Origin: Minisyncoccia bacterium | GTDB lineage: Bacteria; Patescibacteriota; Minisyncoccia; Phycocordibacterales; UBA9973 | Assembly (NCBI GenBank): GCA_044228545.1 | Contig: JBGAUR010000001.1 | Coordinates: 450-64,449, forward strand | Reading direction: 5' to 3' | DNA length: 64,000 nucleotides | Shown here: piece by piece, positions 845 through 62,574 of the stretch | Position numbering within the stretch: position 1 is the stretch's first letter | Layout: each line of letters opens with the position of its first letter | Notes under the pieces: model-generated | What the model was told of the DNA's origin: nothing | The model's database searches: none | Seen by the model: the letters and a program-made list of their open reading frames with translations, nothing else | Translations under genes and position numbers: made by a program

Positions 845-1495
845 TTAAATTTCAAAATTTTTCAATTCTTCGATAATTTCTTTTACTGATTCATCATTTA
901 TATCTTCTGATTTAATATTTGAGTGAGAAAAAATATATTTTTCTATATCTCTACCGCAATTTACCAATCTATCACGTTCTTCTTCGTGCACACTTAGTTT
1001 GTGACCCTTGTATCTTTTACTTGCATCATTCATTCGTTCGTCATATGAAAGAATTCCGTGTGGACCAACTCGTCCATCCGCATAGTGAATCAATTTTTGA
1101 ATAAGATCGCCTTCCTTGCTATGCTTACACATAAAAGAAAATCTATTTTCTCCAGCCAAATATCTAACTTTCTCTGATAAACCAAGTTCTTCTATGATTT
1201 TAATTGTTGCTTCATGCTCATCTTCTCCATATTTATTAATAAATTCTTTTTTTACAATTCTTACATCTTCCACTTCTATATCTGAAAGTCCAAAGACTGA
1301 TTTAGTTTGGTCTAAATTAAATTTTATTACATTACCCATGTCATGTAGTAGACAAGTTGTGATGATTAATTTTTTATCCAGTTTTAAATCTAGAGAATCA
1401 CATACAATAGAAGCAACAGCTGCTACTCGCAACTGGTGCATTTGTAAATGTGGCATTATTTTATATTCTTTGTATATATCAGTAATTTTCCTCAT
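845..1495 (-). CDS. HD-domain phosphohydrolase
   Basis: HQLRVAAVASIVCDSL...LHDMGN matches the H...HD metal-binding signature of HD hydrolases. It is the last gene of the co-directional cluster. Confidence 0.6.
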   Translation of the reverse strand: MRKITDIYKEYKIMPHLQMHQLRVAAVASIVCDSLDLKLDKKLIITTCLLHDMGNVIKFNLDQTKSVFGLSDIEVEDVRIVKKEFINKYGEDEHEATIKIIEELGLSEKVRYLAGENRFSFMCKHSKEGDLIQKLIHYADGRVGPHGILSYDERMNDASKRYKGHKLSVHEEERDRLVNCGRDIEKYIFSHSNIKSEDINDESVKEIIEELKNFEI

Positions 1496-1499
1496 AAAA

Positions 1500-2039
1500 T
1501 TAAAATCTCATATCATTCCAATCAAGACCATATCTCTCACGAATTAATTTAGTTTCACCTTGTGATAACGCTTCATACTCAACTAAATCAAGTAATTTAA
1601 TAGCTTCACCAACGTGCTCTTCACTACTACCTTCTATCTCAAGATAAGCTGGCATTTTAGGATATTGATCAAGATCAAAAATCCAATCTTTATATGTAAA
1701 AGATACTCGGTCTTTTTCTTGATGAGCATAGTGAACCAACCCAATCGCTTCTAGAATTAGCTTAGCATTATTAAAATCAGAAACATCAATATTTACTTCC
1801 TTAGATTGTCTAGTATTTCCAACAAATGTTTCTAAAGATTTCCATGTTATTTCATTTTTTCCATCGGTAGTACTACGAACCCTTAAGTACCAAGGATGAC
1901 TACCTTTTAGAGCTTCTTCTGTACAATACCAATCAACCGTGAGTCTGGTATCTTTTACTCTTATAGCACCTAAATTCTCTAATTTAGCTAAAATTAAATC
2001 TTTATCAATCTCTAATACCTTTGTTTCAATCTCGTGCAT
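1500..2039 (-). CDS. CYTH-domain protein (triphosphate tunnel metalloenzyme / class IV adenylyl cyclase-like), paralog 3
   Basis: N-terminal EIETKVL, central YLRVR, and C-terminal YLEIEG acidic motif are typical of CYTH. There is a 4-nt gap to each neighbouring gene. Confidence 0.65.
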   Translation of the reverse strand: MHEIETKVLEIDKDLILAKLENLGAIRVKDTRLTVDWYCTEEALKGSHPWYLRVRSTTDGKNEITWKSLETFVGNTRQSKEVNIDVSDFNNAKLILEAIGLVHYAHQEKDRVSFTYKDWIFDLDQYPKMPAYLEIEGSSEEHVGEAIKLLDLVEYEALSQGETKLIRERYGLDWNDMRF

Positions 2040-2043
2040 AAAA

Positions 2044-2595
2044 TTAACTCATTCCATACTTCTCAAAAAGCATAATATCGTACTTTCCATCTATAATATG
2101 GTCATCTTTAGTAATACCTAAATCACCAAGAAAAGAAAAAAGTTCTTCTTGAATTTTAATCCGAGCTTCTGGGTCTGATGTTTCAACTATTTTCTCAACC
2201 TCAATAAATTCACCCAACCCTTCCACTAAATCAAGTACAATTTCCATATCATTCAAAGTGGTTTTTACTCTTTTCTTTTCAACTGTTGGAACCTGTTTAT
2301 ACCCAATTAATTTTATAACTTCAAGCATTTCATTGCCATCTGATATTTCAAATTCTTTTTCAATACAATCCTGTCTACTTGACTGTGGTATTTTTAGAGT
2401 AAATAGATGTGACTCATTTTGTTTACGTACTCTAAGTACCGGCACACCTAGTGGTGGAGGGAAAATTTCTTTTTCCGGTATAAATATATAATCAATCTGA
2501 TGTAATTCCTCACCGAACACACACCCTAGGGTTTGAAGTTTTTGTATTATCTCTTCTCTATTATTTAGCCTGGCTTTAATCTCCACTTCGTACAT
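2044..2595 (-). CDS. CYTH-domain protein, paralog 2
   Basis: N-terminal MYEVEIKARL, LRVRKQ, and C-terminal GEFIEVE. It shows the same architecture as the flanking paralogs. Confidence 0.65.
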   Translation of the reverse strand: MYEVEIKARLNNREEIIQKLQTLGCVFGEELHQIDYIFIPEKEIFPPPLGVPVLRVRKQNESHLFTLKIPQSSRQDCIEKEFEISDGNEMLEVIKLIGYKQVPTVEKKRVKTTLNDMEIVLDLVEGLGEFIEVEKIVETSDPEARIKIQEELFSFLGDLGITKDDHIIDGKYDIMLFEKYGMS

Positions 2596-2611
2596 GGTCT
2601 TAATATAACAT

Positions 2612-2633
2612 AAAATCCCCTTTCGGGGATTTT
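2612..2633 (-). terminator. Hairpin AAAATCCCC-TTTC-GGGGATTTT (GAAA tetraloop on the transcribed minus strand), 12 nt after the ndk stop
   Basis: Read directly. A 28-nt string including it (2608-2635) is identical to 16851-16878. Confidence 0.5.
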
Positions 2634-2644
2634 ATTAGATTTAA

Positions 2645-3229
2645 TTATTCATCAACACCAAAGCGTTTGTAATCCATAAGTTTTATATCACCAAACCAAT
2701 GTTTAATTTCATGTTCAGCTTCTTCTGGAGTCTCTGAACAGTGGACGATATTCATAACTGCGCGTTTTTCCATGTTTGCAAGCGCAGGACTGTCGATTGA
2801 GAAATCTCCACGGATTGTTCCCATTTCAGCTTTGTAAGGCATAGTATCACCTGCAACTTTACGAACGACATCAACAGCGTGAACTCCTTTTACAACCATT
2901 TTTACAAGTGGAGCTGAAGTCATATAATCTATAAGCCATTTACGTATTTCAGGGCCAATCTTAGCAGCTTCTGTTGTGCCAAAATCTTTCATAGCATCAT
3001 AACCATATTTCTCATAAGTAGTTAGTGTTTTATTTCCAAGACGTGTTATCCACTCTTCACTTTTTGGATAGTGATCATTAACTTTATCAAATTCTGGGAC
3101 AAACATTTCAAGTGCGACAATCTTAAGATCTCGTTGTTCAAAACGCTTGATAACTTCACCGATTAAGCCTTTTTTAACTCCATCTGGCTTCATCATGACA
3201 TATGTAACTTCTTCTTTTGGGTGTTTCAT
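2645..3229 (-). CDS. ndk: Nucleoside diphosphate kinase with an internal insertion of about 30 aa. The track start at 3271 is probably an over-extension; the ATG at 3229 gives MKHPKEEVTYVMMKPDG.
   Basis: YVMMKPDGVKKGLIGEVIKRFEQRDLKIVALEMF and the active-site region NIVHCSETPEEAEHEIKHWF match the NDK motifs N.IHGSDS..A..EI..WF. Confidence 0.85.
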   Translation of the reverse strand: MKHPKEEVTYVMMKPDGVKKGLIGEVIKRFEQRDLKIVALEMFVPEFDKVNDHYPKSEEWITRLGNKTLTTYEKYGYDAMKDFGTTEAAKIGPEIRKWLIDYMTSAPLVKMVVKGVHAVDVVRKVAGDTMPYKAEMGTIRGDFSIDSPALANMEKRAVMNIVHCSETPEEAEHEIKHWFGDIKLMDYKRFGVDE

Positions 3230-3302
3230 ATAAATAAAAAATCGCTTTCGCGGTTGTAATAATATACTCAAACTATAGCAAAAATCGGGGTATTTTGCAA
3301 TT

Positions 3303-3875
3303 TTACTTTTTTACCTGTTTTTCGAAAGTAAACACTGAATAGTCATGTGGGTTTACATCGTAATTATGCAAAACTTGTAGCGCTGAACACACAACATGGT
3401 CCTCCCATTTAAAACCAAGTTTATCTGAGATTTCTTTTATTTCTTCAATTGTATCCCCCTCCAACTCTATATATGGAGGTATTAACGGCCACTCATCTAT
3501 ATCACATTCTATATTGTCTAAAATATATCTTGTTCTTATTCTCTCCTCATATACTTTTGGAACTAATCCTATTTCTTCAAGAAGCTGGGATGTTTTGTCG
3601 AAATCTGAAACTTCGACTTCGATTTCTTTCATCCCTTGATCTTTTAGAGGATTATTTCCCACTCCTAATCTTTCTTTATAGCTAAGAGTTATTCTGTTCC
3701 CTTCATCTCTAAGTCTAACCCAAGCATTTCGTTCTTTTGAAAGTTTTAAATTGGGAAAATCGTAGGGTTTAAGTCTATAATCAAATCTACCTACAAGAAC
3801 GGCTCCTAGATTTTTTAAATCTTCTTCAATTTTATCTTTATTAATATTTAGAAATTTTACTTCTATTTCTTCCAT
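3303..3875 (-). CDS. CYTH-domain protein, paralog 1
   Basis: MEEIEVKFLNINKDKIEEDL, WVRLRDEG, EIEVEVSDF, and C-terminal YIELEGDT. The stop overlaps the upstream ATPase gene by 1 nt. Confidence 0.65.
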   Translation of the reverse strand: MEEIEVKFLNINKDKIEEDLKNLGAVLVGRFDYRLKPYDFPNLKLSKERNAWVRLRDEGNRITLSYKERLGVGNNPLKDQGMKEIEVEVSDFDKTSQLLEEIGLVPKVYEERIRTRYILDNIECDIDEWPLIPPYIELEGDTIEEIKEISDKLGFKWEDHVVCSALQVLHNYDVNPHDYSVFTFEKQVKK

Positions 3876-6610
3876 TATCCTTGTTGTCTATACTTTGACA
3901 TTATTTCCTCTTCTACTTCTGCACGCTCGCGACCAAATTTTAGATATGAAAGTTCTTTGATTTTTTCTACAATTTCCATATTGCCTTGTGGAGGCGGGAA
4001 TGTTCCCATATTAAAGGGTTTTGTTGGCTGACCTGCCACTAGCATCGATACATAAGCATTTCTATTCTCTATTTTCATTATATCCGCAGAGGTAAATATA
4101 GGTTTAAACTTACTCTCTAGGAATTGTGCATCTTCCGCTCCAACACGGAAAACTGTCATTGAGCCGACGTTACCAAAAACTGCATTCTTGATATTGTCCT
4201 CAAGTTGAGCGATGTATTGGTGGGCAACAGTTAGAGAAAGTCTATACTTACGAGCCTCTGACAAGATAGACTCAATTGAATCCGTAGTAACATTTTGGAA
4301 CTCGTCTATATATAGGAAGAAATCTTGCATCTTTTTTCCATACATATCTACACGTGAAAGTGCAGCCATCTGAATTTTGTTTACTATTAGAAGCCCGATA
4401 AGGTTAGCATTTATATCACCAAGGCGACCTTTTGAAAGGTTTACCAATAGAATCTTTTTATTGTCCATTATATCTCGGAAGTTAAATACAGATTTTTCCT
4501 GAAGAACAACTGGACGCATAATATCGTTGGAAATAAAGTTGTCGAATTTTGAAGTGATATATGGTACGAAGTTCGCAAGGGATTGATCCCCTGTTGTTTG
4601 TTCTGCTCCTTTCCAGAACTGCGTAATGATAGGATTTTTACAATGAGAAAGCTTCATGTCACGGAACTCTTTGTCGGCAAGCACTCTTCCAATTTCTAAA
4701 AGTGTTGAACCAGACTCTGGATGTTCCATAACAAGAAATGCTGAATTCTTGAAATATTGTTCAAACATTGGTCCTCCTGATGTCTTCATATCAAAAAGCT
4801 TGTTGAATATATTCATCAGCTCATTGACTACAAAAGTCTTCTGTTCTGGGTATTTAGGATCATATTCGAGCATGTTTAGACCCATAGGACGAGCAGTGTA
4901 AGCAGGATCAAAATATATAACGTCATCTATGCGTTCCTTTGGAATATAACTCAAAATATCTTGAATATCTGTTCCATGAGGGTCAATATAGCAAACACCG
5001 TGGCCTGCCTTAATATCCTGAGCTATCATATTCTTCATGATTGTCGTCTTACCTGTACCTGTCTGACCTATCACATATAAGTGTCGCATACGGTCTTCGT
5101 CTGCAAAGTGAATGGCTGTATCTTTACCTCTGTAACTGTTAACTCCGAGTATAACGCCTTGTTCCCCCATTTCGATAGGCGCAGGGGCAATACCGGCTTT
5201 TGCTTGCTTGAGTTGAGGAGATGAAGTGATACCGTGTGGGAAGTGGAAGACTGTTGCAAGTTCTTTAAGATTTAGTGGCATTGAATATTCATCGGAAAAG
5301 GTACGGTAAGAAAAATCATGAGTTAATTGGTTTAGATCTTTACCTTGTGGGTGGTTCCAATTGAAACCATTGCGATCAGACTCTGTAAATTGATTGAATG
5401 ATGACTCGATATCTGAAAGAATTTGTTTAGCTCTCAGACTACTCTCAGCTGAAGCAATCACCCGAATATTACAAGCCATTATAGTGCTCTTCATTTTTTC
5501 AGTAATATTCTCTACTGCTTTATCGTTAACCTTTTTCTCTTCTTTGTTTTTTGATTGTCCAAATACAAGCTCTTTGGCAATAGAGCCTAGGCCTTTAGTA
5601 AACTGCCTTGTCATACTTGAAGCTGTGCGCACTGACATCCCCTCTTTTACATCTCCGAGTATTATGTGGAACTTTCTGATAATGTCATCATCTTCTGGGC
5701 AAATAGTAAACTGAATTGCTGCTCCTTCTCCAGATTTTTTGAGCTTAGTGAAGACATTGAGAATAATATTTAGTGGATCGTGATCTATAGCATCATAAAG
5801 CTTTATCGGATAAACTTCGTGATGAGCAAGTGTTGCATAAGAAGCTACCACTGAGCCACTGTCAGTAAATATATTATAGTCATCTGGCGCTTCATTTATC
5901 TTTGCACTAGGGTGGACACCTAAAAGTTGTTTTTCAAAAAGATCTGCTTTGTGTGTTGGCACTGCAGTGTAGAAAACAAAGTGATCAGTATCTTCAGCTA
6001 ATGCAATCTCTAGTGTAAAATGGTTACGATTATAATTCTGCCTACCTTCACCTACTGAATGCATTCCGGCATAAAATTGCTCCATAGCAGAGAGTAACTC
6101 TTTTAAACCTTTTTTTTCTTTCTCATCATTTGTTGGATCAGGTAAAGTAATCTCAAATAACTTCATATCGAGCGATTTGAAGAGTGGAGTACTTTCTTTG
6201 AGTCCAGGGATTTTATGCCTACTATATAAATATTGAACTAGGAATCTATGAAAATCATCATCAAGGTGAGGATTGTTCATCTTAGCCACTATTGAAAGCG
6301 CTGTTGAGATGCCTTTATCTAATAGAATTCCTAACATCTCTTCCATCTTATTATCGTGCGATTCAGGGTGGAGTCTAAGCACCAAGTCATTCGCATCAAC
6401 ATCTTCCATGACAGCACTTTTATGCATTACTTCTTGTGGTTCATATTTCTTATACTCTTGGATAACATCATGAGCAAGATTTTCTTTTGAATAATCTTGT
6501 CCTTGATCTATGAGAGCTTTTTCTTTTTCAGCAATATGGGCACGCAAAAATTCAAGCTCCTCTTCCGGAGTCTTGAACTTTGGAGCATTGTTTAAATTAA
6601 AACCTTCCAT
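3875..6610 (-). CDS. Type IV coupling protein-like ATPase (VirD4/TraD/TrwB family, FtsK-HerA superfamily) with a roughly 500-aa N-terminal extension and no obvious transmembrane anchor. The track start at 6679 is TTG; the ATG at 6610 is preceded by TGATATAAT.
   Basis: The Walker A block HLYVIGQTGTGKTTIMKNMIAQDIKAGHGVCYIDPHGTD aligns with TrwB HLLVNGATGTGKSVL...VIVDPNGD. The Walker B and arginine-finger block FLYIDEFQNV...ARKYRLSLTVAHQYIAQLED aligns with TrwB LWLFIDELASL...GRKAGLRVVAGLQSTSQLDD. Confidence 0.6.
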   Translation of the reverse strand: MEGFNLNNAPKFKTPEEELEFLRAHIAEKEKALIDQGQDYSKENLAHDVIQEYKKYEPQEVMHKSAVMEDVDANDLVLRLHPESHDNKMEEMLGILLDKGISTALSIVAKMNNPHLDDDFHRFLVQYLYSRHKIPGLKESTPLFKSLDMKLFEITLPDPTNDEKEKKGLKELLSAMEQFYAGMHSVGEGRQNYNRNHFTLEIALAEDTDHFVFYTAVPTHKADLFEKQLLGVHPSAKINEAPDDYNIFTDSGSVVASYATLAHHEVYPIKLYDAIDHDPLNIILNVFTKLKKSGEGAAIQFTICPEDDDIIRKFHIILGDVKEGMSVRTASSMTRQFTKGLGSIAKELVFGQSKNKEEKKVNDKAVENITEKMKSTIMACNIRVIASAESSLRAKQILSDIESSFNQFTESDRNGFNWNHPQGKDLNQLTHDFSYRTFSDEYSMPLNLKELATVFHFPHGITSSPQLKQAKAGIAPAPIEMGEQGVILGVNSYRGKDTAIHFADEDRMRHLYVIGQTGTGKTTIMKNMIAQDIKAGHGVCYIDPHGTDIQDILSYIPKERIDDVIYFDPAYTARPMGLNMLEYDPKYPEQKTFVVNELMNIFNKLFDMKTSGGPMFEQYFKNSAFLVMEHPESGSTLLEIGRVLADKEFRDMKLSHCKNPIITQFWKGAEQTTGDQSLANFVPYITSKFDNFISNDIMRPVVLQEKSVFNFRDIMDNKKILLVNLSKGRLGDINANLIGLLIVNKIQMAALSRVDMYGKKMQDFFLYIDEFQNVTTDSIESILSEARKYRLSLTVAHQYIAQLEDNIKNAVFGNVGSMTVFRVGAEDAQFLESKFKPIFTSADIMKIENRNAYVSMLVAGQPTKPFNMGTFPPPQGNMEIVEKIKELSYLKFGRERAEVEEEIMSKYRQQG

Positions 6611-6617
6611 TAAAACT

Positions 6618-6626
6618 ATTATATCA
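6618..6626 (-). promoter_or_regulatory. Extended -10 (TGATATAAT on the minus strand) ending 7 nt before the ATPase ATG; leaderless-type arrangement
   Basis: Read directly on the reverse complement of 6611-6630. Confidence 0.35.
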
Positions 6627-6656
6627 TAAAGATTTTTATAAACTGATATAAAAAAA

Positions 6657-6673
6657 GCCGGAGTGCGTCCGGC
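6657..6673 (-). terminator. Hairpin GCCGGA-GTGCG-TCCGGC, followed on the minus strand by a T-run; terminates the 163-aa gene
   Basis: Read directly. An A-run at 6650-6656 sits on the plus strand. Confidence 0.45.
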
Positions 6674-6702
6674 TGGCAAGTTGGCAATCCTATTTGGTAG
6701 GA

Positions 6703-8078: not shown

Positions 8079-9767
8079 TTATTCAAACTCTTTTTTGTAT
8101 TCTTCAACATCCCATACCTTCTCCAAAGATTCTTGCGAATAAGAACTTATTATATTATTACCTGACTTATCACTTTTACGATTGAAGAGTCTAAAGGAGC
8201 TTGCCATAGTATGGCGTTTTTTGTGTCTCTCATAGAAGGACTCTCTAGGTAATGGAATTTTATATTTGCGGTAAAAAGAAAGCTCTTGCTCTGTAATTTT
8301 ATATCTTTTATTTGATAATTTAGATAGAATAACCTCGTTCACAATATCATCACCAACATCAAGAATAGAGTCAGGGAGCTCCTCTGCTTTGATTGTATGA
8401 TCAAATATTTGATCCTCTGTTTTATCTTCATATCTAAAACCATGCAAATTTATTTCATCCTTTGTAAGCGGATATAACTCTTGAGCTTCTGTGTCTAGAT
8501 AAGGGAAATAAGATAATTCGGTAGGTAAATAATCTCCGAAAACATATTTATTCCCTTTTTTATCAATATATGGCATGTCAGACATGTGCTTTTTTATTTC
8601 TTCAACTAACTTTAAATATTCTTCTTTTGTATATTGCTTATTCAAAATACAATATTCTGCATCTTTTAAACCATTACAACCAAAACAATTTTTACTTCTA
8701 TAAATTTGACTCACATATGTCACATCCTGACAGTTCCACGCTGAATAACTACCAATAATATTAGAAGAGAAGGCTGGGAGATCTGATTCATAAGCAAGCT
8801 CTGATCCTCCACCAGCATCAGTATCATAGGAATCTCTTGCTCCATCAGCATAGTTATCGAATCTACAATTTTCACTCGAAAGCATTAAAAAAGAATCTTT
8901 ACAGTTATGACAATTAGTCAAAAGGTCACCAGAACAGTCAACGCAATTAACCATCCTGACAGCTTTTCTGGGATGAGTATTTAAAATGGGTTCAAATTCT
9001 TTCTTAGCTCTTTCAACCCCAGAGTAAGTATGCAAAGCATATTCTTTCATCAGCTCTTCATATTTTTCTTTACCAACATCTTCATTTTTAAAAAAATATG
9101 ATTTTCCTCGAAGCCCTGTGCACATAAAACAGTGGTTACAATTTCGGCAATCATAACAGAAGGCAGAATCTGAACATGATCGTGAATCATACACATATCT
9201 ACATTGATAACAATGTTCAGTGTTTACAGTTTCGTAATTGCCTTCATCTTTCCCAAAGCTCGTATGCACATCTACTAAGTCCTTACTATTTACAACATAG
9301 AAAGAATACATAACATTCTCAAGCTTCCAAGCCTTTATCACTAAATAGCAATCTTTTCCCATTGCAAAGTCATTTGTATACATACAATTAGTACTCAGTA
9401 ATCCATCATCTGTATCCATTGCTGGTTTCGGAACAGTTTTTATTAAATCAACATATTGCTCAAAAAATGAACGGGAAAAATCATAGTCCCTTCCATAATC
9501 AAAAGCGTTCCATTGATCGGAATGCCATAATTTAGGAGTATATACGGTAATATCAGACTTAGGAGAATATAAAGAGATAACGGAATTCCCTGACAAACCA
9601 CATGTCGATTTATAATAATTAACATAGTTTCTCCAACTAAACCTTCTTTGTCTTCTACATTCTGGGCAAAACGTCGGCGGAGGAACTTTTATTTTTTCAT
9701 AAAAGGAGAAATCATCAACCTCTATATTAAAGGAGTTTTTACAATTCTGACAATTCCTAGTTTCCAT
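8079..9767 (-). CDS. Cysteine-rich protein of 562 aa, unknown family (paralog A)
   Basis: ATG at 9765-9767. An N-terminal zinc ribbon C-x2-C...FY...P-P-x2-CP-x-CRRQRRFSWRN is followed by a WHSDQWN..DYGRDYDFSRSFFEQ block, CxxCxxCxxC clusters and a CILNKQYTKEEY motif. It is paralogous to 42309-43955 and 60546-62231. Confidence 0.6.
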   Translation of the reverse strand: METRNCQNCKNSFNIEVDDFSFYEKIKVPPPTFCPECRRQRRFSWRNYVNYYKSTCGLSGNSVISLYSPKSDITVYTPKLWHSDQWNAFDYGRDYDFSRSFFEQYVDLIKTVPKPAMDTDDGLLSTNCMYTNDFAMGKDCYLVIKAWKLENVMYSFYVVNSKDLVDVHTSFGKDEGNYETVNTEHCYQCRYVYDSRSCSDSAFCYDCRNCNHCFMCTGLRGKSYFFKNEDVGKEKYEELMKEYALHTYSGVERAKKEFEPILNTHPRKAVRMVNCVDCSGDLLTNCHNCKDSFLMLSSENCRFDNYADGARDSYDTDAGGGSELAYESDLPAFSSNIIGSYSAWNCQDVTYVSQIYRSKNCFGCNGLKDAEYCILNKQYTKEEYLKLVEEIKKHMSDMPYIDKKGNKYVFGDYLPTELSYFPYLDTEAQELYPLTKDEINLHGFRYEDKTEDQIFDHTIKAEELPDSILDVGDDIVNEVILSKLSNKRYKITEQELSFYRKYKIPLPRESFYERHKKRHTMASSFRLFNRKSDKSGNNIISSYSQESLEKVWDVEEYKKEFE

Positions 9768-9771
9768 AAAT

Positions 9772-10368
9772 TTAATCTATTTTGACTTTTATAATTCCAG
9801 TCAAGTTCTCACTTGATAAATAACCACACCATTTTTCTAAATCTGGAATATCTATTTTTATTGGTATTTCTGGCTTAGTAAATATTACTATATTTTTATA
9901 GCTTTTCTTTATTACTTCTTCTTTTGCTACACAATTATCTATGTGGCCAGAAAATATTATCTTATTTAAGCCCAAACAGGAATCAAAAACTTGTTTACTG
10001 AATGCTTCAATATTTTTTACAAGAACGACTCTATCTTTTATATCTTCCAAATTTTTTACAGCATTAATAAAAAGATCTTCATTGCCACTATCTAAAATTA
10101 TTACCTGGCTATCTCGATGATTCTCTAAATCTTCAGTTGAATTAACAAAGGCTAAGGTTGTATGTTTATTACCTATCTGTTCTAAAAAGTTATCTTTAGC
10201 CATAGGAAAGGCTGTAAAAAATAATATTTTTGAACCAGATAAAAATAAATCTTTGATGAGGGTAATAGTAAAATGAGAACCTCCAGATTTTTCTCCATAT
10301 ATAACTAAATAAGGTAAATCTTTTTCTTGTATTTTATATTCATTACCATTAAGTAGTACCTGGTTCAT
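9772..10368 (-). CDS. Hypothetical protein of 198 aa
   Basis: It is a long ORF tightly packed between pyrH-like and the Cys-rich gene. I recognise no family. Confidence 0.4.
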   Translation of the reverse strand: MNQVLLNGNEYKIQEKDLPYLVIYGEKSGGSHFTITLIKDLFLSGSKILFFTAFPMAKDNFLEQIGNKHTTLAFVNSTEDLENHRDSQVIILDSGNEDLFINAVKNLEDIKDRVVLVKNIEAFSKQVFDSCLGLNKIIFSGHIDNCVAKEEVIKKSYKNIVIFTKPEIPIKIDIPDLEKWCGYLSSENLTGIIKVKID

Positions 10369-15362: not shown

Positions 15363-15548
15363 TTACCAACTAGATTTACGAACACCTGGAAGCATACCTT
15401 CGTTTGCAAGTTCACGGAAACATATACGGCATAGGCCGAAATCTCTCATATAAGCATGGCCTCTTCCACAGCGAAAACAACGATTTGTCTCTCGTGTTGA
15501 AAACTTAGATTTCTTATGATGTCTTGCTAAAACTGATGTTTTTGCCAT
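15363..15548 (-). CDS. rpsZ: 30S ribosomal protein S14, zinc-binding type Z (61 aa)
   Basis: [25 protein letters not shown] shows the C4 zinc motif of short S14. Confidence 0.9.
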
Positions 15549-15655
15549 ATATAAAAATGATCGTTCTTAATCGAGTGATGTCTTGTGTCTTTTCTTAAAG
15601 CCTTTATTTATGCCTTAAGGAGAAACACAGATCCTCTCAATACCGAACTTCCCCT

Positions 15656-15684
15656 ATACTATCAGATACCCCCTTTTGTGTCAA
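15656..15684 (-). promoter_or_regulatory. Promoter TTGACA (15684-15679), 17-nt spacer, TAGTAT (15661-15656), about 100 nt upstream of rpsZ
   Basis: Read directly. It has the same -10 hexamer and the same flanking GAG/GGG as the tuf and rpsS promoters. Confidence 0.4.
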
Positions 15685-15689
15685 ATAAC

Positions 15690-16290
15690 AAAGATCGGGC
15701 TTGCATTAGAATTAAGCCATGTAGTATAATGTAACGGTATTTGACAAACAGGGGTGGTTCCCTAATAAACGAGATTCCGAAACAGTAACCTGTTTCAAGT
15801 GTGGCGTGGGTCTTAAAAAACCATACGCCAAGTGCGTATTCCCGTAAAAAGGAATCTCACCTACGTCACACTTGGTACAGGTTTTTTATTTATCTCGTAT
15901 TTCCTAATAGCAACTAACGAAAGTTAGTTGGTTGTTATAAAGGGGATGCGAGATTAACATAATCCAGAACGACATCCTGAAATTCTGGTAGGTGGTGACC
16001 GAAATACACTAAAAAATGTCAGCAAAATTTGCTAGATGTTTTCCAGGAGATGAAGGCAATATTATTTGTCAGCATTGGAATGGAAGCTGGATTGTCTTCC
16101 CAGGTGGTAGTGAAGACCAGACGGAGAAAAGAAAACGCCTCCGTGTCACAAGGACAAAGAAGCGTTTTCAACAAGTATAAGGCTATAAACCTTTACAAGG
16201 CACTCTCAAGAAATTGGGGGTGCTTTGTATTTATATTATATCTCAACAAAGGGATCTAACGTAAGTACCCTTTGTAAACTTTATGGGGAT
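15690..16290 (-). other. ORF-free, GC-elevated segment inside the spc cluster; candidate structured non-coding RNA or decayed insertion
   Basis: There is no minus-strand ORF of 60 aa or more, and GC is visibly higher than the flanks. It contains the hairpin GGCGTGGG...CCATACGCC and a TTGACA-17-TAAGAT promoter at its upstream edge (16319-16291). The only track ORF (16029-16259) is on the opposite strand. Confidence 0.25.
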
Positions 16291-16336
16291 ATCTTATATT
16301 AAGACTCTCAGTATGTCAAATAACTCTTATCCAAGC

Positions 16337-16726
16337 TTATATTTTAAACAATAAATAGTTAAATAATAATATATACCCATATATTAAAAAGATTATTTTT
16401 AGTATAAAAAATACCCACCCAGGTAAACTTAACCATTCACTAGATTTAATATCAGCTTCTGTGTTGCCCCCATTCTTGTATTCGTGAAAGGTAAAAAAGA
16501 AAAACCAGATCAAAGATGATACTAAATATTGAATAAAATCAAAAAATAAGCTTGAAATAAATAAAGATAAGGGCATTATGAGTTCTTCAGGAATTAACGG
16601 TTTGTCAAATTTAGTAATCTTAAAAATCCAAATTATTGCTATTCCAGCTAAAGATAATTGCCTAGCAATATTACTAGTCTTTTCTGTAAATTCATATGAA
16701 TCATTTTTATACTCTTTTAGTTGCAT
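16337..16726 (-). CDS. Small polytopic membrane protein (129 aa) inserted between rplE and rpsZ
   Basis: It has 3-4 hydrophobic helices (LSLAGIAIIWIF, FISSLFFDFIQYLVSSLIWFFFF, VFFILKIIFLIYGYILLF). I recognise no family. Confidence 0.4.
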   Translation of the reverse strand: MQLKEYKNDSYEFTEKTSNIARQLSLAGIAIIWIFKITKFDKPLIPEELIMPLSLFISSLFFDFIQYLVSSLIWFFFFTFHEYKNGGNTEADIKSSEWLSLPGWVFFILKIIFLIYGYILLFNYLLFKI

Positions 16727-23671: not shown

Positions 23672-24871
23672 CTACTTAATAACTTTTGTCACAACACCAG
23701 CACCAACAGTCTTTCCACCTTCACGGATAGCAAAGTGTTGTTGATCTTCAAGAGCAACTGGGGTTACGAGTTTAACTGAAAGTTTAACTGTGTCACCTGG
23801 CATAACCATCTCAACTCCACTAGGAAGTGCAGCTTCCCCAGTAACGTCTGTTGTACGGATGTAGAATTGTGGTTTGTATCCAGTAAAGAATGGAGTGTGG
23901 CGACCACCTTCTTCCTTCTTCAAGATGTAAACTTCACATTCAAATTCTGAGTGAGGTGTAGTTGTACCTGGCTTACAAAGAACTTGTCCACGAGTAATAT
24001 CTTCTTTTTTGATACCACGGATAAGGATACCAGCGTTGTCTCCAGCCATACCTTCTTTTAGGTTTTTGTTGAACATTTCAATACCAGTAACTGTAGTCTT
24101 TGCTGTATCTTTGATTCCAACGATTTCAACGTCTTCACCAACTTTAACAATTCCACGTTCGATTTTACCAGTAACAACTGTTCCACGGCCTTCGATTGAG
24201 AATATATCTTCAATAGGCATTAGGAATGGTTTTGCTGTATCACGTTCTGGAACTGGGATATAAGTATCAAGAGCATTTACTAGCTCAAGAACTTTCTTTG
24301 CCCATTCATCATTGTTATCTGCTGATTCAAGAGCTTTAAGTCCTGATCCACGGATAACAGGAGCATTTGCGCCATCAAAGCCTTGTTTTGTAAGGAGTTC
24401 ACGGATTTCTTCTTCAACTAGGTCGATCATATCTTTATCATCAACCATGTCGCATTTGTTTAGGAATACGATTATTTTTGGAACACCAACTTGTTTTGCA
24501 AGGAGAACGTGTTCACGAGTCTGAGGCATCGCACCATCAGTTGCAGCTACGACAAGTACAGCACCGTCCATTTGAGCGGCACCTGTAATCATGTTTTTGA
24601 TGTAGTCAGCGTGTCCTGGAGCATCGATGTGTGCATAGTGACGAGCTGGAGTCCAGTATTCGTTATGAGAAAGAGCGATCGTGATACCACGAGCTTTTTC
24701 TTCTGGAGCTGAGTCGATTTGATCTACGCCTTTAATTTTAGCACCGTATCCATCACCTTGACGATTAAGTACTGATAGGATTGCTGCTGTTAATGTTGTT
24801 TTACCATGGTCAACGTGACCAATAGTTCCCACATTTACGTGTGGCTTATCTCTGTTAAATTCTTCTGCCAT
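23672..24871 (-). CDS. tuf: Elongation factor Tu
   Basis: [22 protein letters not shown] and the full 399 aa. Confidence 0.97.
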
Positions 24872-25032: not shown

Positions 25033-26616
25033 CTATATCTCTATTTGTTTAGGCTTAGGGTTATTGTTTTCACTATTATCCTGAGCACTGCTACAACCTG
25101 GATCACCATCTTTACCACCAAAATCAATCTTTCCATCCCCATCGTTATCAATTAAATCACTACATTGAGGAAGACTATTCGCTTCATTATTATCATTTGG
25201 ATCATAACTTGTATCATTACCAGCATCACCTTCAGTATGACAACCTGGATCAGCTATGTCTATTAAACTATCAGAATCATTATCTGTGCCATCACTACAT
25301 TGTGGATCACCTCCACCACCTGCTGCTTCAAAACATGCAGCTGTTGACCCTCCACCTGATCCTTGGCAAGTCCATGTCCAAGGGCCACTAACTCCACCAG
25401 TTCCACCACCAGGATAGGTACCAGCAACACAATTGAAGTGGGTCGCTGCACACATACCATTTACAATAGTCTCATCCAATACAACCACTGTAGAATTTGC
25501 AGTTGCATTAGTTCCAAAGCCATCACATTGTACAGAGTAAGTTGTTGTAGAAGATAGACTTACATCGACACTTCCGTTTATATTACCGTTAGTATTAAAA
25601 CCAGAACCAGTACAAGAGTCTGCGTTTGTAGAAGACCAAGTCAAAGATGTAATTCCTCCACCATAAGACAATACACTGGGGTTTGCATACAATGTGGCTG
25701 TAGGAGTTTTAGGATTAGATGGAGAAACAGACACATTCACTTGCGACACATCATTAGGATATCCTGTCTTAGTACAGGTAATTGTATATATATGTGTTCC
25801 AGCAGATAGGCCAGATATTACCTCAGAACCACCTAGTGTAGACTTATTTCCACTCCATCCATTTGAGGCTACACAACTATCTGGTGAACCAGTTGTAACC
25901 CAAGAAAGAGTTGTTTGGTCATCAGGAAGAGTCATGGAGCGAGGATTAGCTGATAGTTGAACGGTCATGCCAGATTGTTGAGGAAGTACGGTTATAGTGA
26001 CCTGTGCTTGTGCAGAATTACCAGAACCATCGTCACAAACTACAGTATAAGTTGTTGTTGTTATTAGAGATACGTTATCAATTCCAGATATTGCTCCACC
26101 GGTAGAAAAATCACTACTATTACAAGAAGTTGCGCCGGTAGAAGACCAAGTTAAATTCGCTGATCCTCCTCCATAAGGTAAAGTATACGTATCGGAAGTT
26201 AGATTAGCTGTTACACCGTTTGCAGCAAGAACTTCTATCTGAACTTGGTCTGATGCGTCAGCGAATCCAGTTTTATGACAAGTAATTTCATAAGTATAAG
26301 TACCTATAGAATATAGATCAGTTATTGCTTCATTCCCACTATTTGGAGACTTAGTACCAGTCCACATGCCGTTTGTTGTAGCGTCACAACTATCTGGTGA
26401 ACCAGTTGTAACCCAAGAAAGGGTTGTAGTACTGTTAGGTTGAGTTATTGGTGTTGTTCCAGATAGATCAACTGTTATTGCTGAATTAACAACTTGGTAA
26501 GGTTCATCGTGGTCAATTAATATCCAAGTAGCACTGACTGGTTTTGACACTGAAAACAATAGAACAAACATTAATCCTAGGAGTGCAAATTTATATTTAT
26601 TTAATATTTTTTTCAT
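25033..26616 (-). CDS. Secreted protein with a signal peptide, four Ig-like repeats and an acidic C-terminal C-x-DG-x-DND-x-D calcium-binding-like module
   Basis: N-terminal MKKILNKYKFALLGLMFVLLFSVSKPVSA. The repeats are TTLSWVTTGSPDSC...TYTYEITCHKTG and ANLTWSSTGATSC...TTYTVVCDDG, each present twice. The C-terminus is CSDGTDNDSDSLIDIADPGC...CSDLIDNDGDGKIDFGGKDGDPGC. Confidence 0.55.
   Translation of the reverse strand: MKKILNKYKFALLGLMFVLLFSVSKPVSATWILIDHDEPYQVVNSAITVDLSGTTPITQPNSTTTLSWVTTGSPDSCDATTNGMWTGTKSPNSGNEAITDLYSIGTYTYEITCHKTGFADASDQVQIEVLAANGVTANLTSDTYTLPYGGGSANLTWSSTGATSCNSSDFSTGGAISGIDNVSLITTTTYTVVCDDGSGNSAQAQVTITVLPQQSGMTVQLSANPRSMTLPDDQTTLSWVTTGSPDSCVASNGWSGNKSTLGGSEVISGLSAGTHIYTITCTKTGYPNDVSQVNVSVSPSNPKTPTATLYANPSVLSYGGGITSLTWSSTNADSCTGSGFNTNGNINGSVDVSLSSTTTYSVQCDGFGTNATANSTVVVLDETIVNGMCAATHFNCVAGTYPGGGTGGVSGPWTWTCQGSGGGSTAACFEAAGGGGDPQCSDGTDNDSDSLIDIADPGCHTEGDAGNDTSYDPNDNNEANSLPQCSDLIDNDGDGKIDFGGKDGDPGCSSAQDNSENNNPKPKQIEI
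25873..26421 (-). repeat. Intragenic tandem duplication with a period of about 513 bp (171 aa)
   Basis: The 36-mer ACAACTATCTGGTGAACCAGTTGTAACCCAAGAAAG occurs at 25873 and again at 26386. Confidence 0.5.
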
Positions 26617-26634
26617 AGATTTCAGTTATTTTTA

Positions 26635-28047
26635 TTAATTAGGCGCACTATCACCACAACCAACTATTCCTGGCTGACCACCAGAACTATAACAACCCCT
26701 ATAGATAAATGTTCCCCCACAACTACCGATATAAGCAGCTGGGTTATTTTCTGCATATATATCTCCGATTCCACCACAATAACTAGGCATTACATCACCC
26801 CTAGGATCTCCAGGTACAACCAATAAGTGTGTATCTTCATCTATACAAGTTTCATTTGGATCACAAGGTACTTTGTTGTGCACCAGGAATCCATCAGCGT
26901 AGTATGTTCTATCACCAGACAATACAAAGTTATATAGCGGTGTAGTCTCAGGAACATTCTTGCTTTCAATAGAGTTAATAACCTCATTGCCAGATTCTTT
27001 AATAAGAGTATCGCCAACTTCAAGCTTGGTTACACTTATACCAATATGCTCTTGTCTAGTTTTTTCAGGATTTAGTGATTTCCAACCTTGCGTTGTCTTG
27101 AATGGATGTTCTTCGGTAACAAACAGACGCCCTTTGTTAAATCCATATATCTTGCCATCTGATTTTAGTGGACGATGATATGCTAAAACTTCATTATTAG
27201 ACTTTTCTCCTTTTACTACATCCCCAATCTTAACATCTTGAATATTTTTTATTGAACCATCAGCCATTGTTACTTTTGTATCGGAGATAAAACATACGTG
27301 GTACGCATTTGGACCACCAGTAGGTGGAGTACCTGTGGCTCCACAGATATTTCCCCCAGCCATACTTGTAGGACTATTTGAGTGTACGTGACCTTCATAA
27401 AAACCTGCAGTTCCTTCTATTTCACAACCAGTACCATTACATGCTTGACCATTATAATAACTAGTTGACTGGTTTGCTGGGATAGTAAACACAACGATTC
27501 TTGGATCAAGAGGGAGTGGACCGTATTGAGTGGTACCTGTTAATTGAGCGTTAACTGTTATCGCTGGGTGATTAGCTGGTCCAACATAATTTATCTTACC
27601 CCATCGGAAATTACCGGAGAAATATAATGTAGCTATACATGGGGATATTCCAGTATCAACACCAGTTAAATAATTAGCAAAATAGTTTCCAGTTAATGTT
27701 GGTGATTGAAATGGAGTAGAAGCTGGGGGTCCAAAAGGGAATGTCTCATTAAATCCAATATAAGTAGCAGGTATTATTGATACAGGGGTCCCACCATTGT
27801 TGCCCACAGTAAGAGAAACCTGCTCAGTATCGCAGTTGTTAGAAGTTATTTGGCCCTTCGCTAAAAATGTTGTAGCTGTGGTAGTGAAAGGACCAGCAGG
27901 ATCTAGATAAGCAAGTGTTGTTATATTTCCACTTGGTTGACAATTGTATACGTAAGTTGCAGCATCAGCATTTGAATAACTAAAAGCTAATAAAAGAAAT
28001 ACAGATGCTAGTGTTATATATTTAATGTTTTTTAGAAGTTTTTTCAT
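26635..28047 (-). CDS. Secreted protein with a Hint (hedgehog/intein-like, BIL-type) autoprocessing domain and a 79-aa Cys-rich C-terminal peptide. The track start at 28071 is GTG; the ATG at 28047 gives a signal peptide.
   Basis: The Hint domain spans aa 260-399, from CFISDTKVTMADGSIKNIQDVKIGDVV (Cys codon 27292-27294) to FLVHN (26875-26880), followed by KVPCDPNETC...CGGIGDIY...SCGGTFIYRGCYSSGGQPGIVGCGDSAPN. Confidence 0.6.
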   Translation of the reverse strand: MKKLLKNIKYITLASVFLLLAFSYSNADAATYVYNCQPSGNITTLAYLDPAGPFTTTATTFLAKGQITSNNCDTEQVSLTVGNNGGTPVSIIPATYIGFNETFPFGPPASTPFQSPTLTGNYFANYLTGVDTGISPCIATLYFSGNFRWGKINYVGPANHPAITVNAQLTGTTQYGPLPLDPRIVVFTIPANQSTSYYNGQACNGTGCEIEGTAGFYEGHVHSNSPTSMAGGNICGATGTPPTGGPNAYHVCFISDTKVTMADGSIKNIQDVKIGDVVKGEKSNNEVLAYHRPLKSDGKIYGFNKGRLFVTEEHPFKTTQGWKSLNPEKTRQEHIGISVTKLEVGDTLIKESGNEVINSIESKNVPETTPLYNFVLSGDRTYYADGFLVHNKVPCDPNETCIDEDTHLLVVPGDPRGDVMPSYCGGIGDIYAENNPAAYIGSCGGTFIYRGCYSSGGQPGIVGCGDSAPN

Positions 28048-28057
28048 AAGATTATAA

Positions 28058-62268: not shown

Positions 62269-62574
62269 TGCTTTCTTAACTACCTTTTTCTTAGTTGTTG
62301 TTTTCTTTTTTGCTTTAGCTATTGGTTTTGGTGAGAAAGGAGCAGTTTCAATGGTAAATGGTTTTGGAGCAGCGATTAATCTTTCTTTTTTCTTCTTTTT
62401 TACAGTTTTCTTTTTAGCTACGACTTTCTTTTTTGTAGCTGTTTTACTTGTAGCTACCTTGGTGGGTGATACTGTGGTTTTTGAAGTAGTTGTAGTTGCT
62501 GCAGACACATCCGCCATAGGATAGCCTATGAATAGAGTAAGAACTATAAGTAATGGGATCAATCTTTTATTCAT
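62266..62574 (-). CDS. Secreted Lys/Thr-rich low-complexity protein of 102 aa
   Basis: A signal peptide is followed by TTTTSKTTVSPTKVATSKTATKKKVVAKKK repeats. Confidence 0.4.
   Translation of the reverse strand: MNKRLIPLLIVLTLFIGYPMADVSAATTTTSKTTVSPTKVATSKTATKKKVVAKKKTVKKKKKERLIAAPKPFTIETAPFSPKPIAKAKKKTTTKKKVVKKA

Follow-up and report, generated by a model that had tools for sequence, protein, structure and literature searches.

What would an ATPase of the VirD4/TrwB coupling-protein type do in a cell if it has no membrane anchor and its gene sits among housekeeping genes of the chromosome? This question is raised by a gene in the window (the whole stretch of 64,000 nt analysed here), located in an open frame that is unbroken across 3875-6679 on the minus strand. 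The gene and the elements around it are as follows.

3875..6610, minus strand: complete coding sequence, 911 aa, DUF8128 plus T4CP-type ATPase (open reading frame list and translation)
6623..6674, minus strand: terminator-like hairpin of the upstream gene (6674-6656), then a promoter-like site (6652-6623, TATGAT/TATAAT) before the ATG
2610..3875, minus strand: predicted co-transcribed genes for a CYTH-domain protein and NDK, then a terminator-like hairpin (Pfam and terminator scan)
3303-3875, minus strand: CYTH-domain protein, its start overlapping the stop of the ATPase gene at 3875
2645-3271, minus strand: NDK (Pfam)
2635-2610, minus strand: terminator-like hairpin after NDK (terminator scan)

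The preliminary description gave a length of 911-934 aa, of which we keep the lower value. The upstream terminator and promoter, together with the N-termini of homologues (M1 and E2 are conserved among those 907-915 aa long), support the ATG at 6610 as the real start, giving 911 aa. A 934-aa form started at TTG would cross both the terminator-like hairpin and the promoter-like site and was rejected. The gene is confirmed to be real and intact; scoring covered 2,402 homologues, and the best 120 have 79-100% identity over full length.

The C-terminal half of the protein carries the ATPase, with the following features.

4001..5155, minus strand: T4CP-type nucleotide-binding domain with an inserted all-alpha domain, residues 486-870 (Pfam, hhalign, Foldseek)
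5042..5068, minus strand: Walker A/P-loop GQTGTGKTT, residues 515-523
4463..4843, minus strand: all-alpha insert between Walker A and B, residues ~590-716 (AF2, inside the TrwB alignment)
4298..4321, minus strand: Walker B FFLYIDEF, residues 764-771
4214..4255, minus strand: ARKYRLSLTVAHQY, residues 786-799, with candidate arginine finger R787 and conserved Q798
3878..3979, minus strand: C-terminal helix pair, residues 878-911 (AF2 helices 878-892 and 896-908)

Both motif regions had been said to match those of TrwB, and in a profile alignment they do, including the conserved Arg and Gln: D769/E770 are aligned with the TrwB IDEL motif, and R787 and Q798 with TrwB ...KGRKAGLRVVAGLQ.... We take R787 to be the equivalent of the TrwB arginine finger. 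Among 27 diverse family members G515, T517, G518, G520 and K521 are invariant, while D769, E770, R787 and Q798 are nearly so. The segment VCYIDPHGTD occupies residues 539-548, and conserved residues of the C-terminal pair are K885, L887, S888, Y889, G893 and R894. The AF2 model (pLDDT 84.7) is purely helical over residues 590-716, the position of the T4CP all-alpha domain; this region falls within the TrwB alignment, with low column confidence there.

By sequence, the domain is of T4CP rather than FtsK or VirB4 type, as proposed earlier. It passes three Pfam gathering scores: PF10412 (TrwB_AAD_bind; 26.9 bits versus a cut-off of 20.5) and PF02534 (T4SS-DNA_transf; 26.2 versus 20.1), together spanning residues 502-806, and PF12696 (TraG-D_C). 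The hhalign comparison with TrwB gave 94% probability (E 1.5e-7, 310 columns, residues 502-866), and a search of the family profile against PDB sequences ranked TrwB and DotL first. The best NCBIfam matches are TraD and VirD4 models, at scores far below the curated cut-offs (SXT_TraD, the best, 53.4 bits versus 366; CD1115 35.3 versus 250). Foldseek TM(target) values are 0.60-0.66 for TrwB and 0.51-0.56 for Cag-beta. We regard the VirD4/TrwB-type identity of the ATPase as secure. With Walker A, Walker B, the candidate arginine finger and the conserved glutamine all intact, the protein should bind and hydrolyse NTP.

The N-terminal half consists of two parts.

6206..6610, minus strand: soluble helical module, residues 1-135, in place of the sister clade's TM helix
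5171..6193, minus strand: DUF8128 (PF26449) alpha/beta core, residues ~140-480 (precomputed Pfam on the exact protein)

This region had been described as a 500-aa N-terminal extension. Local Pfam, NCBIfam and PDB sequence searches indeed returned no T4CP, HerA or FtsK match for residues 1-~485. The region is neither an ad hoc addition nor an orphan, though: it consists of the helical module and of DUF8128, a catalogued but uncharacterised domain (Pfam PF26449) that was found in 1,080 representative clusters and that phage proteins have as well. Residues E201, D244, F248, Q300, K372, R436 and E450 are invariant in DUF8128. In the AF2 model, helices of the module span residues 15-129 (pLDDT ~80).

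The reported lack of a TM segment was borne out by a hydropathy scan and the AF2 model, on which, rather than on a dedicated TM predictor, this call is based. The Kyte-Doolittle mean over 19 residues peaks at 1.39, in an internal helix of the ATPase core, and over their first 60 residues the 120 closest homologues all stay below 1.9. A sister clade of Patescibacteria has a single N-terminal TM helix where the module would be; a hydrophobic N-terminus was found in 114 of 119 members of this clade versus 0 of 120 in the soluble one. Among 130 representatives, 102 have the helical module and 20 a TM-like helix instead. The soluble and membrane-anchored forms differ only at the extreme N-terminus. 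The preliminary description set the protein against canonical T4CPs with their N-terminal TM helices, but the lack of a TMD has precedents: T4CPs without a TMD are a recognised subfamily, such as TraJ of pIP501 with its membrane partner TraI (PMC7434980), and the sister clade has the helix.

The family is large in Patescibacteria and occurs also in Bacillus phages (phrog_5156; E 4e-85, residues 144-906 aligned with profile positions 23-807 of 824). The phage G homologue gp156 was matched at E 3e-35, and by a profile of the N-terminal domain only at 98% (E 1.7e-13). Foldseek matched gp156 at 8e-43 and the phage JL protein with a TM of 0.59 over 839 columns. In phage G, gp156 adjoins gp153 (TrbL_4, VirB6-like) and gp155 (P-loop_TraG/AAA_10, VirB4-like); in YungSlug, genes for membrane proteins and an M23 peptidase lie upstream of the homologue. 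The neighbours of the phage members thereby include peptidoglycan-hydrolase genes. Homologues of the family are also found on plasmids.

The structural searches bring in a different reading, in which the protein is a VirB4-like two-domain ATPase that stands between VirB4 and VirD4 or itself energises a minimal channel, and is not a coupling protein. The top 13 PDB matches of Foldseek are full-length TrwK/VirB4 (about 840-906 columns, E 2e-13 to 9e-10), with E-values better than those of the VirB4 C-terminal domain alone (7e-8) and of TrwB (2e-9). Gp155 of phage G aligns over 814 columns, and VirB4 too is soluble and anchored via partners. These matches touch the condition under which the preliminary description would give up its T4CP assignment, but they were unconfirmed at the profile level: the N-domain compared with a 59-sequence VirB4 N-domain profile gave 0.2% probability, and the ATPase halves gave 81%, below the TrwB match. 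The TM-scores of the full-length matches are just 0.21-0.33 with rmsd 15-17 A, the TIGR00929 score is far below its cut-off, and phage G has its separate VirB4-like protein beside the homologue. We consider a VirB4-like role improbable.

The chromosomal context of the gene is one of housekeeping genes. In about half of 80 species it follows a block of the spc operon, SecY, Adk and Map, directly after which it has its own promoter-like site. Its flanks in the window include Adk, a PyrH-like kinase and an RNase J-like gene. The identity of the Nomurabacteria orthologue is 79.5%, compared with 81% for SecY and 72-92% for ribosomal proteins, and identity correlates with that of SecY (r = 0.94, n = 29) and of Map (r = 0.89, n = 38). 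The Paceibacteria gene is chromosomal, vertically inherited and conserved like SecY and Map; its behaviour is that of a housekeeping gene under slow evolution and differs from that of genes for plasmids, conjugation or defence. Neither VirB4, VirB6, VirB3 or TrsD nor a relaxase was found within 8-10 kb on either side in about 85 Patescibacteria loci, and about 86 kb of the source contig likewise lack T4SS components and relaxase. No integrase, transposase or repeats were seen nearby.

The ‘defence-like module’ suggested earlier is not supported by these observations. A part in anti-phage defence or in an integrated mobile element might have been expected given that HerA/FtsK-superfamily ATPases recur in defence systems, that the phage and plasmid homologues exist, and that there are weak PADLOC matches (mad8 2e-14; HerA models 1e-6). 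These matches reflect the generic ATPase only; system partner genes are absent and the four neighbours have no PADLOC matches. Dozens of species keep the gene in its place next to the ribosomal operon, with housekeeping synteny and no island, and the substitution rate equals that of core proteins. Such a role is very improbable.

The neighbourhood could also be read as pointing to a motor or receptor for nucleic-acid uptake linked to type IV pili or competence, feeding nucleotide salvage in organisms unable to make nucleotides. A PilC/PilMNO-like/PilB-like cluster directly follows the gene of one divergent family member, and both the predicted co-transcription with the CYTH and NDK genes and the flanking genes fit nucleotide and nucleic-acid metabolism. 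Yet only one locus shows the pilus adjacency, Adk and Map commonly belong to the tail of the spc operon, and comEC was reported to be non-essential in Southlakia (PMC12102498). An NDK tblastn match shares the locus with the gene in 39 of 83 loci, directly downstream in most, but the divergence of NDK is uncorrelated with that of the ATPase protein (r = 0.26), which suggests synteny of the two genes without co-evolution. We consider an uptake motor of this kind improbable.

Quinonero-Coronel et al. (PMC12102498) reported in 2025 T4CP homologues in 2,918 of 3,035 Patescibacteria genomes (96%) and VirB4 in 2,417 (80%). Only 148 of 5,713 T4CP homologues were near virB4, and relaxases numbered only 109. 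The authors raised exaptation, as ‘exaptation not ruled out’. Their orphan T4CP homologues are very probably the same gene set as the one described here. The text of that paper contains the word ‘transmembrane’ 0 times and gives no domain architecture or DUF8128, nor anything on soluble and TM clades, ribosomal-operon synteny or phage relatives. We found no publication that describes how the domains are arranged, the split into TM and soluble forms or the way the gene behaves as a core gene.

Exaptation could have produced a cytoplasmic housekeeping translocase, a T4CP-derived ring that has left the service of secretion and acts on the cell's own DNA or nucleoprotein in segregation, repair or replication-associated tasks in the manner of FtsK or HerA. 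This would account for the soluble form and the core-gene conservation. The clade without a TM helix, the vertical inheritance at the level of SecY and Map, the housekeeping-only synteny and the excess of T4CP over VirB4 prevalence are all in favour, as are the TM-form relatives, located near dnaX in 3 of 3 loci and in one case adjoining UDG, AP endonuclease and ExoVII. On the other hand, the nucleotide-binding domain is of T4CP type with the all-alpha insert, FtsK_SpoIIIE is sub-threshold and DUF87 covers the P-loop only; there is neither an FtsK gamma domain nor a nearby gene for a nuclease partner like NurA. Members of the sister clade have a membrane anchor, the phage homologues stand beside VirB6/VirB4-like genes, and FtsK has been reported at least in Saccharibacteria. 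We regard such a translocase as unlikely, if less so than a pilus-linked or VirB4-like ATPase.

Our preferred reading, to which we give a probability of roughly 0.5, is that the soluble-clade protein of Paceibacteria, DUF8128 joined to a VirD4/TrwB-type ATPase, feeds a substrate into an envelope-spanning machine. By analogy with TrwB and other T4CPs it would form a hexameric ring and use ATP to receive a macromolecular substrate (nucleic acid or protein) and pass it on. The likeliest partner would be a T4SS-like apparatus whose chromosomal genes, located away from this one, are present in about 80% of Patescibacteria. Because the protein has no anchor of its own, DUF8128 and the N-terminal helical module may serve to dock it on a separate membrane partner, in the way that TraI presumably recruits TraJ of pIP501. 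Since relaxases are almost absent from the phylum and the gene is so conserved, its role would lie in transport essential to the lineage and not in conjugation. We infer both substrate and partner machine; DNA uptake or transfer, named in the preliminary description, may be the role of the ATPase.

Several observations count against a substrate-feeding ATPase of this kind. There is no T4SS component near the gene in about 85 loci, and T4CP homologues are commoner in the phylum than VirB4. In Southlakia a t4cp, which may or may not be of the DUF8128 type, was reported to be non-essential, as opposed to the essential T4SS genes (PMC12102498). Canonical T4CPs need the TMD for activity and oligomerisation (PMC7434980), and conservation at the level of ribosomal proteins is atypical of secretion-system coupling proteins.

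A bolder formulation, which we put forward only tentatively and consider unlikely, makes DUF8128 plus T4CP a housekeeping motor essential to the Paceibacteria lineage. Its ancestor would be a coupling protein of the conjugation type that left the membrane when a soluble module took the place of the TM helix. The motor would now power a process other than conjugation that is central to the life of these ultra-small symbionts, such as handling nucleic acid taken from the host or the chromosome of the cell itself. The N-domain might then prove to be of VirB4 type, making the family a structural link between VirB4 and VirD4.

Patescibacteria account for much of bacterial diversity and have tiny genomes and a host dependence whose mechanisms are mostly unknown. 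The exaptation question of 2025 now takes a concrete shape: evolution like that of SecY and Map, a position at the ribosomal operon, DUF8128 and two forms, with DUF8128 common to phage proteins in T4SS-like clusters. If the function is non-conjugative, a conjugation ATPase would have been turned into core cellular machinery.

Among known systems, HerA belongs to the same ASCE P-loop superfamily (Foldseek TM(target) 0.44-0.54); it was rejected as DUF87 matches only residues 509-546, the P-loop, and Pfam scans of the neighbours showed no NurA-type partner. For FtsK/SpoIIIE, PF01580 scores 19.7 bits versus a cut-off of 24 over about 30 P-loop residues only, and the window protein has no gamma domain, membrane domain or TM segment. 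VirB4 (TrwK of R388, PDB 7O43/8RTD) is likewise soluble, has two domains and a similar size, and contains a related ATPase domain. It differs in that its N-domain has no profile-level similarity to that of the window protein, whose ATPase is nearer to TrwB by sequence and which has no VirB3/VirB6 neighbours. As a sequence assignment VirB4 was rejected (TIGR00929 21.8 bits versus a cut-off of 643; PF03135, CagE_TrbE_VirB, on no homologue; hhalign with VirB4/TrwK 8.6%, P-loop only).

With VirD4/TrwB/TraD (TrwB of R388, PDB 1E9R/1GKI) the protein shares the RecA-like nucleotide-binding domain, Walker A and B, the Arg and Gln and the all-alpha insert. Unlike them, it has a ~480-residue helical module plus DUF8128 in place of the N-terminal TMD, has no relaxase or MPF genes nearby and is encoded by a chromosomal core gene with ribosomal-protein-like conservation. 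TraJ of pIP501, described only as a T4CP without TMD and likened here by that description, is likewise a cytosolic T4CP-type ATPase, presumably recruited by a separate membrane protein. TraJ is plasmid-borne, in a tra operon beside its partner, whereas the window gene has no adjacent partner gene and encodes a large conserved N-domain. The phage proteins (phrog_5156, phage G gp156 and the Herelleviridae ‘ATPase domain protein’ of YungSlug, JL and Shanette) lack the ~140-residue N-terminal helical module, are only 20-24% identical to the window protein and, unlike the Patescibacteria genes, are phage-borne beside VirB6-like, VirB4-like or M23-peptidase genes; they have the same DUF8128 and T4CP-like ATPase.

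In the ORF list of the window a single long ORF occupies 3875-6679 on the minus strand. Its first ATG is at 6610, and the 23 codons upstream of this ATG cross a terminator-like hairpin and a promoter-like site. Since homologues of 907-915 aa also share the same Met-Glu start, the product is 911 aa long. The preliminary description gave a length of 911-934 aa; the lower value stands, while the longer start, placed over the hairpin and promoter-like site, does not. No paralogue of the gene was found in the window. The features of the gene and its product are as follows:

6674-6656, terminator-like hairpin, AGCCGGACGCACTCCGGCT followed by a T-run
6652-6623, promoter-like site, between the hairpin and the ATG at 6610
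residues 515-523, Walker A, GQTGTGKTT
residues 764-771, Walker B, FFLYIDEF
residues 786-799, motif ARKYRLSLTVAHQY

The motifs quoted in the preliminary description were thus located, and its view of the protein as soluble is borne out by a hydropathy scan: no 19-residue stretch has transmembrane-type hydropathy, and the highest value, 1.39, falls inside an internal helix of the ATPase core.

Residues ~500-830 exceed the Pfam gathering scores of TrwB_AAD_bind, T4SS-DNA_transf and TraG-D_C; the match to DUF87/HerA is confined to the P-loop, and FtsK_SpoIIIE stays under its threshold. Among NCBIfam models TraD and VirD4 are top-ranked, yet far under their equivalog cut-offs. When 27 diverse members of the family are combined in a profile, TrwB and DotL rank first among PDB sequences, and TrwB of R388 (reference record NC_028464) aligns with the family profile over 310 columns (residues 502-866) at 94% probability. 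The claim of a coupling protein-like (T4CP-like) ATPase therefore holds, on the three Pfam models and the TrwB alignment. AlphaFold2 with 28 homologues of 79-100% identity as input reached a pLDDT of 43.6, and this model was discarded for one from a diverse alignment, which is confident (pLDDT 84.7, pTM 0.68) and has a P-loop fold with an all-helical insert at residues 590-716. K521 is invariant in the family alignment and D769, E770, R787 and Q798 are nearly so; the enzyme should be active.

In Foldseek comparisons the TM-scores (target) were 0.60-0.66 for TrwB-deltaN70, 0.51-0.56 for Cag-beta, 0.44-0.54 for HerA and 0.68 for the VirB4 C-terminal domain. A VirB4-like energising ATPase, or an intermediate between VirB4 and VirD4, is an improbable reading of the protein: the VirB4 proteins TrwK and PrgJ align with the family profile at the P-loop or Walker B only. 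A VirB4-type N-domain is retained as a structural lead only, the sequence and profile comparisons being negative: single-sequence hhalign against TrwK, PrgJ, TrwB and PcfC, the N-domain alone against the VirB4-like gp155 of Bacillus phage G, and a profile-profile comparison with a 59-sequence VirB4 alignment (0.2%).

The N-terminal ~500 residues, first described as an extension, include a domain already catalogued: precomputed annotation assigns PF26449 (DUF8128) to the exact target protein and its relatives. An exhaustive search with residues 1-495 retrieved 1,080 representative clusters, whose full-length proteins measure ~800-1,120 aa; no mention of DUF8128 was found in the literature searched. 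The model has a helical module at residues 1-135, followed by an alpha/beta region (residues ~149-455) whose conserved polar residues are E201, D244, Q300, K372, R436 and E450. In shorter relatives the match is limited to residues ~143-495, and a strongly hydrophobic helix stands at the start. Of the 130 representatives whose core N-terminus is complete, the helical module is present in 102 and a TM-like helix in 20. A TM-like N-terminus was seen in 114 of the 119 members of the P0267 clade (Portnoybacteria, Pacebacteria and other Parcubacteria) versus none of the 120 in the target's clade, from which we infer that the soluble form arose by exchange of a single-pass anchor for a soluble module of ~135 residues.

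The domain pair extends to phages. The family phrog_5156, with no assigned function, matches residues 144-906 (E 4e-85); both domains are common to gp156 of Bacillus phage G and to proteins of the Herelleviridae phages YungSlug, JL and Shanette, and the JL protein is a strong structural match (TM 0.59 over 839 columns). Beside gp156, gp153 is a VirB6-like TrbL_4 protein and gp155 a VirB4-like P-loop_TraG/AAA_10 protein; gp153-gp156 of this jumbo phage (L091:2827-8391) form a compact set resembling a type IV secretion system (T4SS), with gp156 as its DUF8128 and T4CP-like member. The YungSlug gene neighbours two membrane proteins and a membrane-anchored M23 peptidase. For the ATPase half alone, the plasmid relatives are annotated as T4CP-type and include a stand-alone Sulfitobacter ATPase (34% identity), haloarchaeal and Sulfolobus conjugative-plasmid proteins, and ATPases of Bacillus and Streptomyces. 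Plasmids are nearly devoid of DUF8128. A defence or mobile-element role is highly improbable; PADLOC gave generic ATPase matches only, and the defence-like module suggested earlier is not upheld.

The window belongs to the chromosome. On the target's strand, upstream of it, come the ribosomal spc operon, then SecY, Adk, a PyrH-like kinase, two ORFs without assignment, Map and an unassigned 163-aa ORF. The start of a CYTH protein overlaps the target stop at 3875, and on this strand no further terminator-like hairpin occurs until after NDK. Directly downstream, ahead of an RNase J-like gene, the same-strand run 845-3875 consists of:

3303-3875, minus strand, CYTH paralogue
2645-3271, minus strand, NDK
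2044-2595, minus strand, CYTH paralogue
1500-2039, minus strand, CYTH paralogue
845-1495, minus strand, HD-domain protein

The CYTH and HD genes are present in only some relatives. At least 393 relatives were obtained from GTDB species representatives. The 80 top-scoring ones are all Patescibacteria, mostly of Paceibacteria lineages, and about half of the 80 keep the order SecY-Adk-Map-gene-NDK-RNase J. Identity to the target protein correlates with that of SecY (r = 0.94) and of Map (r = 0.89), and its mean equals that of Map. In one Nomurabacteria genome the target is 79.5% identical, SecY 81% and ribosomal proteins 72-92%, with Adk at 34% and NDK at 31%. By these identities the gene behaves as a vertically inherited core gene. 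NDK identity is bimodal over the loci, at 28-43% or 63-98%, and shows no correlation with that of the target (r = 0.26), a pattern suggestive of two types of NDK or of a replacement.

The identity of the target is secure: it is an ATPase of the T4CP family whose N-domain is DUF8128, it belongs to the soluble clade, and its gene is a core gene. The protein would act as a hexameric NTP-driven receptor or translocase, with DUF8128 and the N-module docking it to a membrane machine whose genes lie elsewhere. We give a probability of about 0.5 to such a docking hexamer, with a chromosomal Patescibacteria T4SS-like apparatus as its most plausible partner.

VirB4, VirB6 and relaxase were absent from the large ORFs of the window and its flanks (~86 kb of contig), from 80 GTDB loci and from the surroundings of the TM-form and divergent Patescibacteria members examined. 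Large ORFs without Pfam match lie directly downstream of the gene in many loci; they are not usable as a conserved partner, because their mutual similarity is loose, most are not membrane proteins and a P-loop is lacking. The 163-aa and 562-aa upstream ORFs of the window showed no relation to neighbours of TM-form relatives. A motor tied to type IV pili or to nucleic-acid uptake is an unlikely alternative to the docking hexamer; a pilus cluster adjoins one divergent member only. That member (L094:1006-8573), a DUF8128 and T4CP-like gene in two pieces of 816 and 254 aa, immediately precedes a type IV pilus-like cluster, which comprises T2SSF/PilC, three small proteins with N-terminal anchors and a PilB-like N-terminus.

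TM-form members were near dnaX in three of three loci (L088, L090 and L096). The last also adjoins GIY-YIG, UDG, AP-endonuclease and ExoVII genes; the first two have an FtsQ-like POTRA protein and a PMT-like glycosyltransferase close by. Another locus (L095:96-15721) carries two T4CP-like paralogues (958 and 1,120 aa) within 8 kb, each adjoining a ~770-aa ORF without Pfam match; large unannotated ORFs akin to these, of loose mutual kinship, also stand after the gene in numerous loci of Paceibacteria.

Several further regions of the window were recorded. Two paralogous ORFs of ~560 aa (8079-9767 and 60546-62231) have no Pfam match and abundant CxxC motifs; their family is represented in relatives by one to four tandem copies between the PyrH-like gene and Map. 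A 198-aa ORF (9772-10368), also without Pfam match, carries the motif LVIYGEKSGGSHFT, which resembles a degenerate P-loop; only two other loci have this ORF, and the target's ATPase profile misses it. The spc operon is interrupted at 15549-16726, between S14 (15363-15548) and L5 (16888-17427), by an ORF-free gap of ~790 bp and a hydrophobic 129-aa ORF (16337-16726); an Rfam search there gave no family match. A protein with a Hint/intein-like domain (26635-28071, within 25033-29344) is flanked by 527-aa and 428-aa ORFs that have no Pfam match, and lies upstream of a presumed EF-Tu ORF of 399 aa (23672-24871). An M23 and LysM peptidase stands at the end of the window (62567-63790). Just past it (L093:801-9702) are K/E-rich ORFs of 829, 178, 386, 198 and 1,237 aa without Pfam match; as none has a P-loop, this run was rejected as a T4SS cluster, and the 829-aa ORF beside the peptidase as VirB4.

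Quinonero-Coronel et al. (2025, PMC12102498) reported that 2,918 of the 3,035 Patescibacteria genomes carry VirD4-type T4CP homologues, 5,713 in all, of which only 148 are near virB4; VirB4 was present in 2,417 genomes, and relaxases numbered only 109. The authors note that the Southlakia t4cp was not essential, allow exaptation of these proteins and did not analyse T4CP architecture. An exapted cytoplasmic DNA translocase is a rather doubtful reading of our target; a replacement of FtsK by it also seems doubtful, FtsK being documented in the literature at least in Saccharibacteria. The finding sharpens the exaptation question for Patescibacteria T4CPs, but the target itself is an unexceptional representative of a large family catalogued before. 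Absence of a transmembrane domain, presented at first as unusual, has a precedent: T4CPs of this kind are a recognised subfamily, exemplified by TraJ of pIP501 with its membrane partner TraI (PMC7434980).
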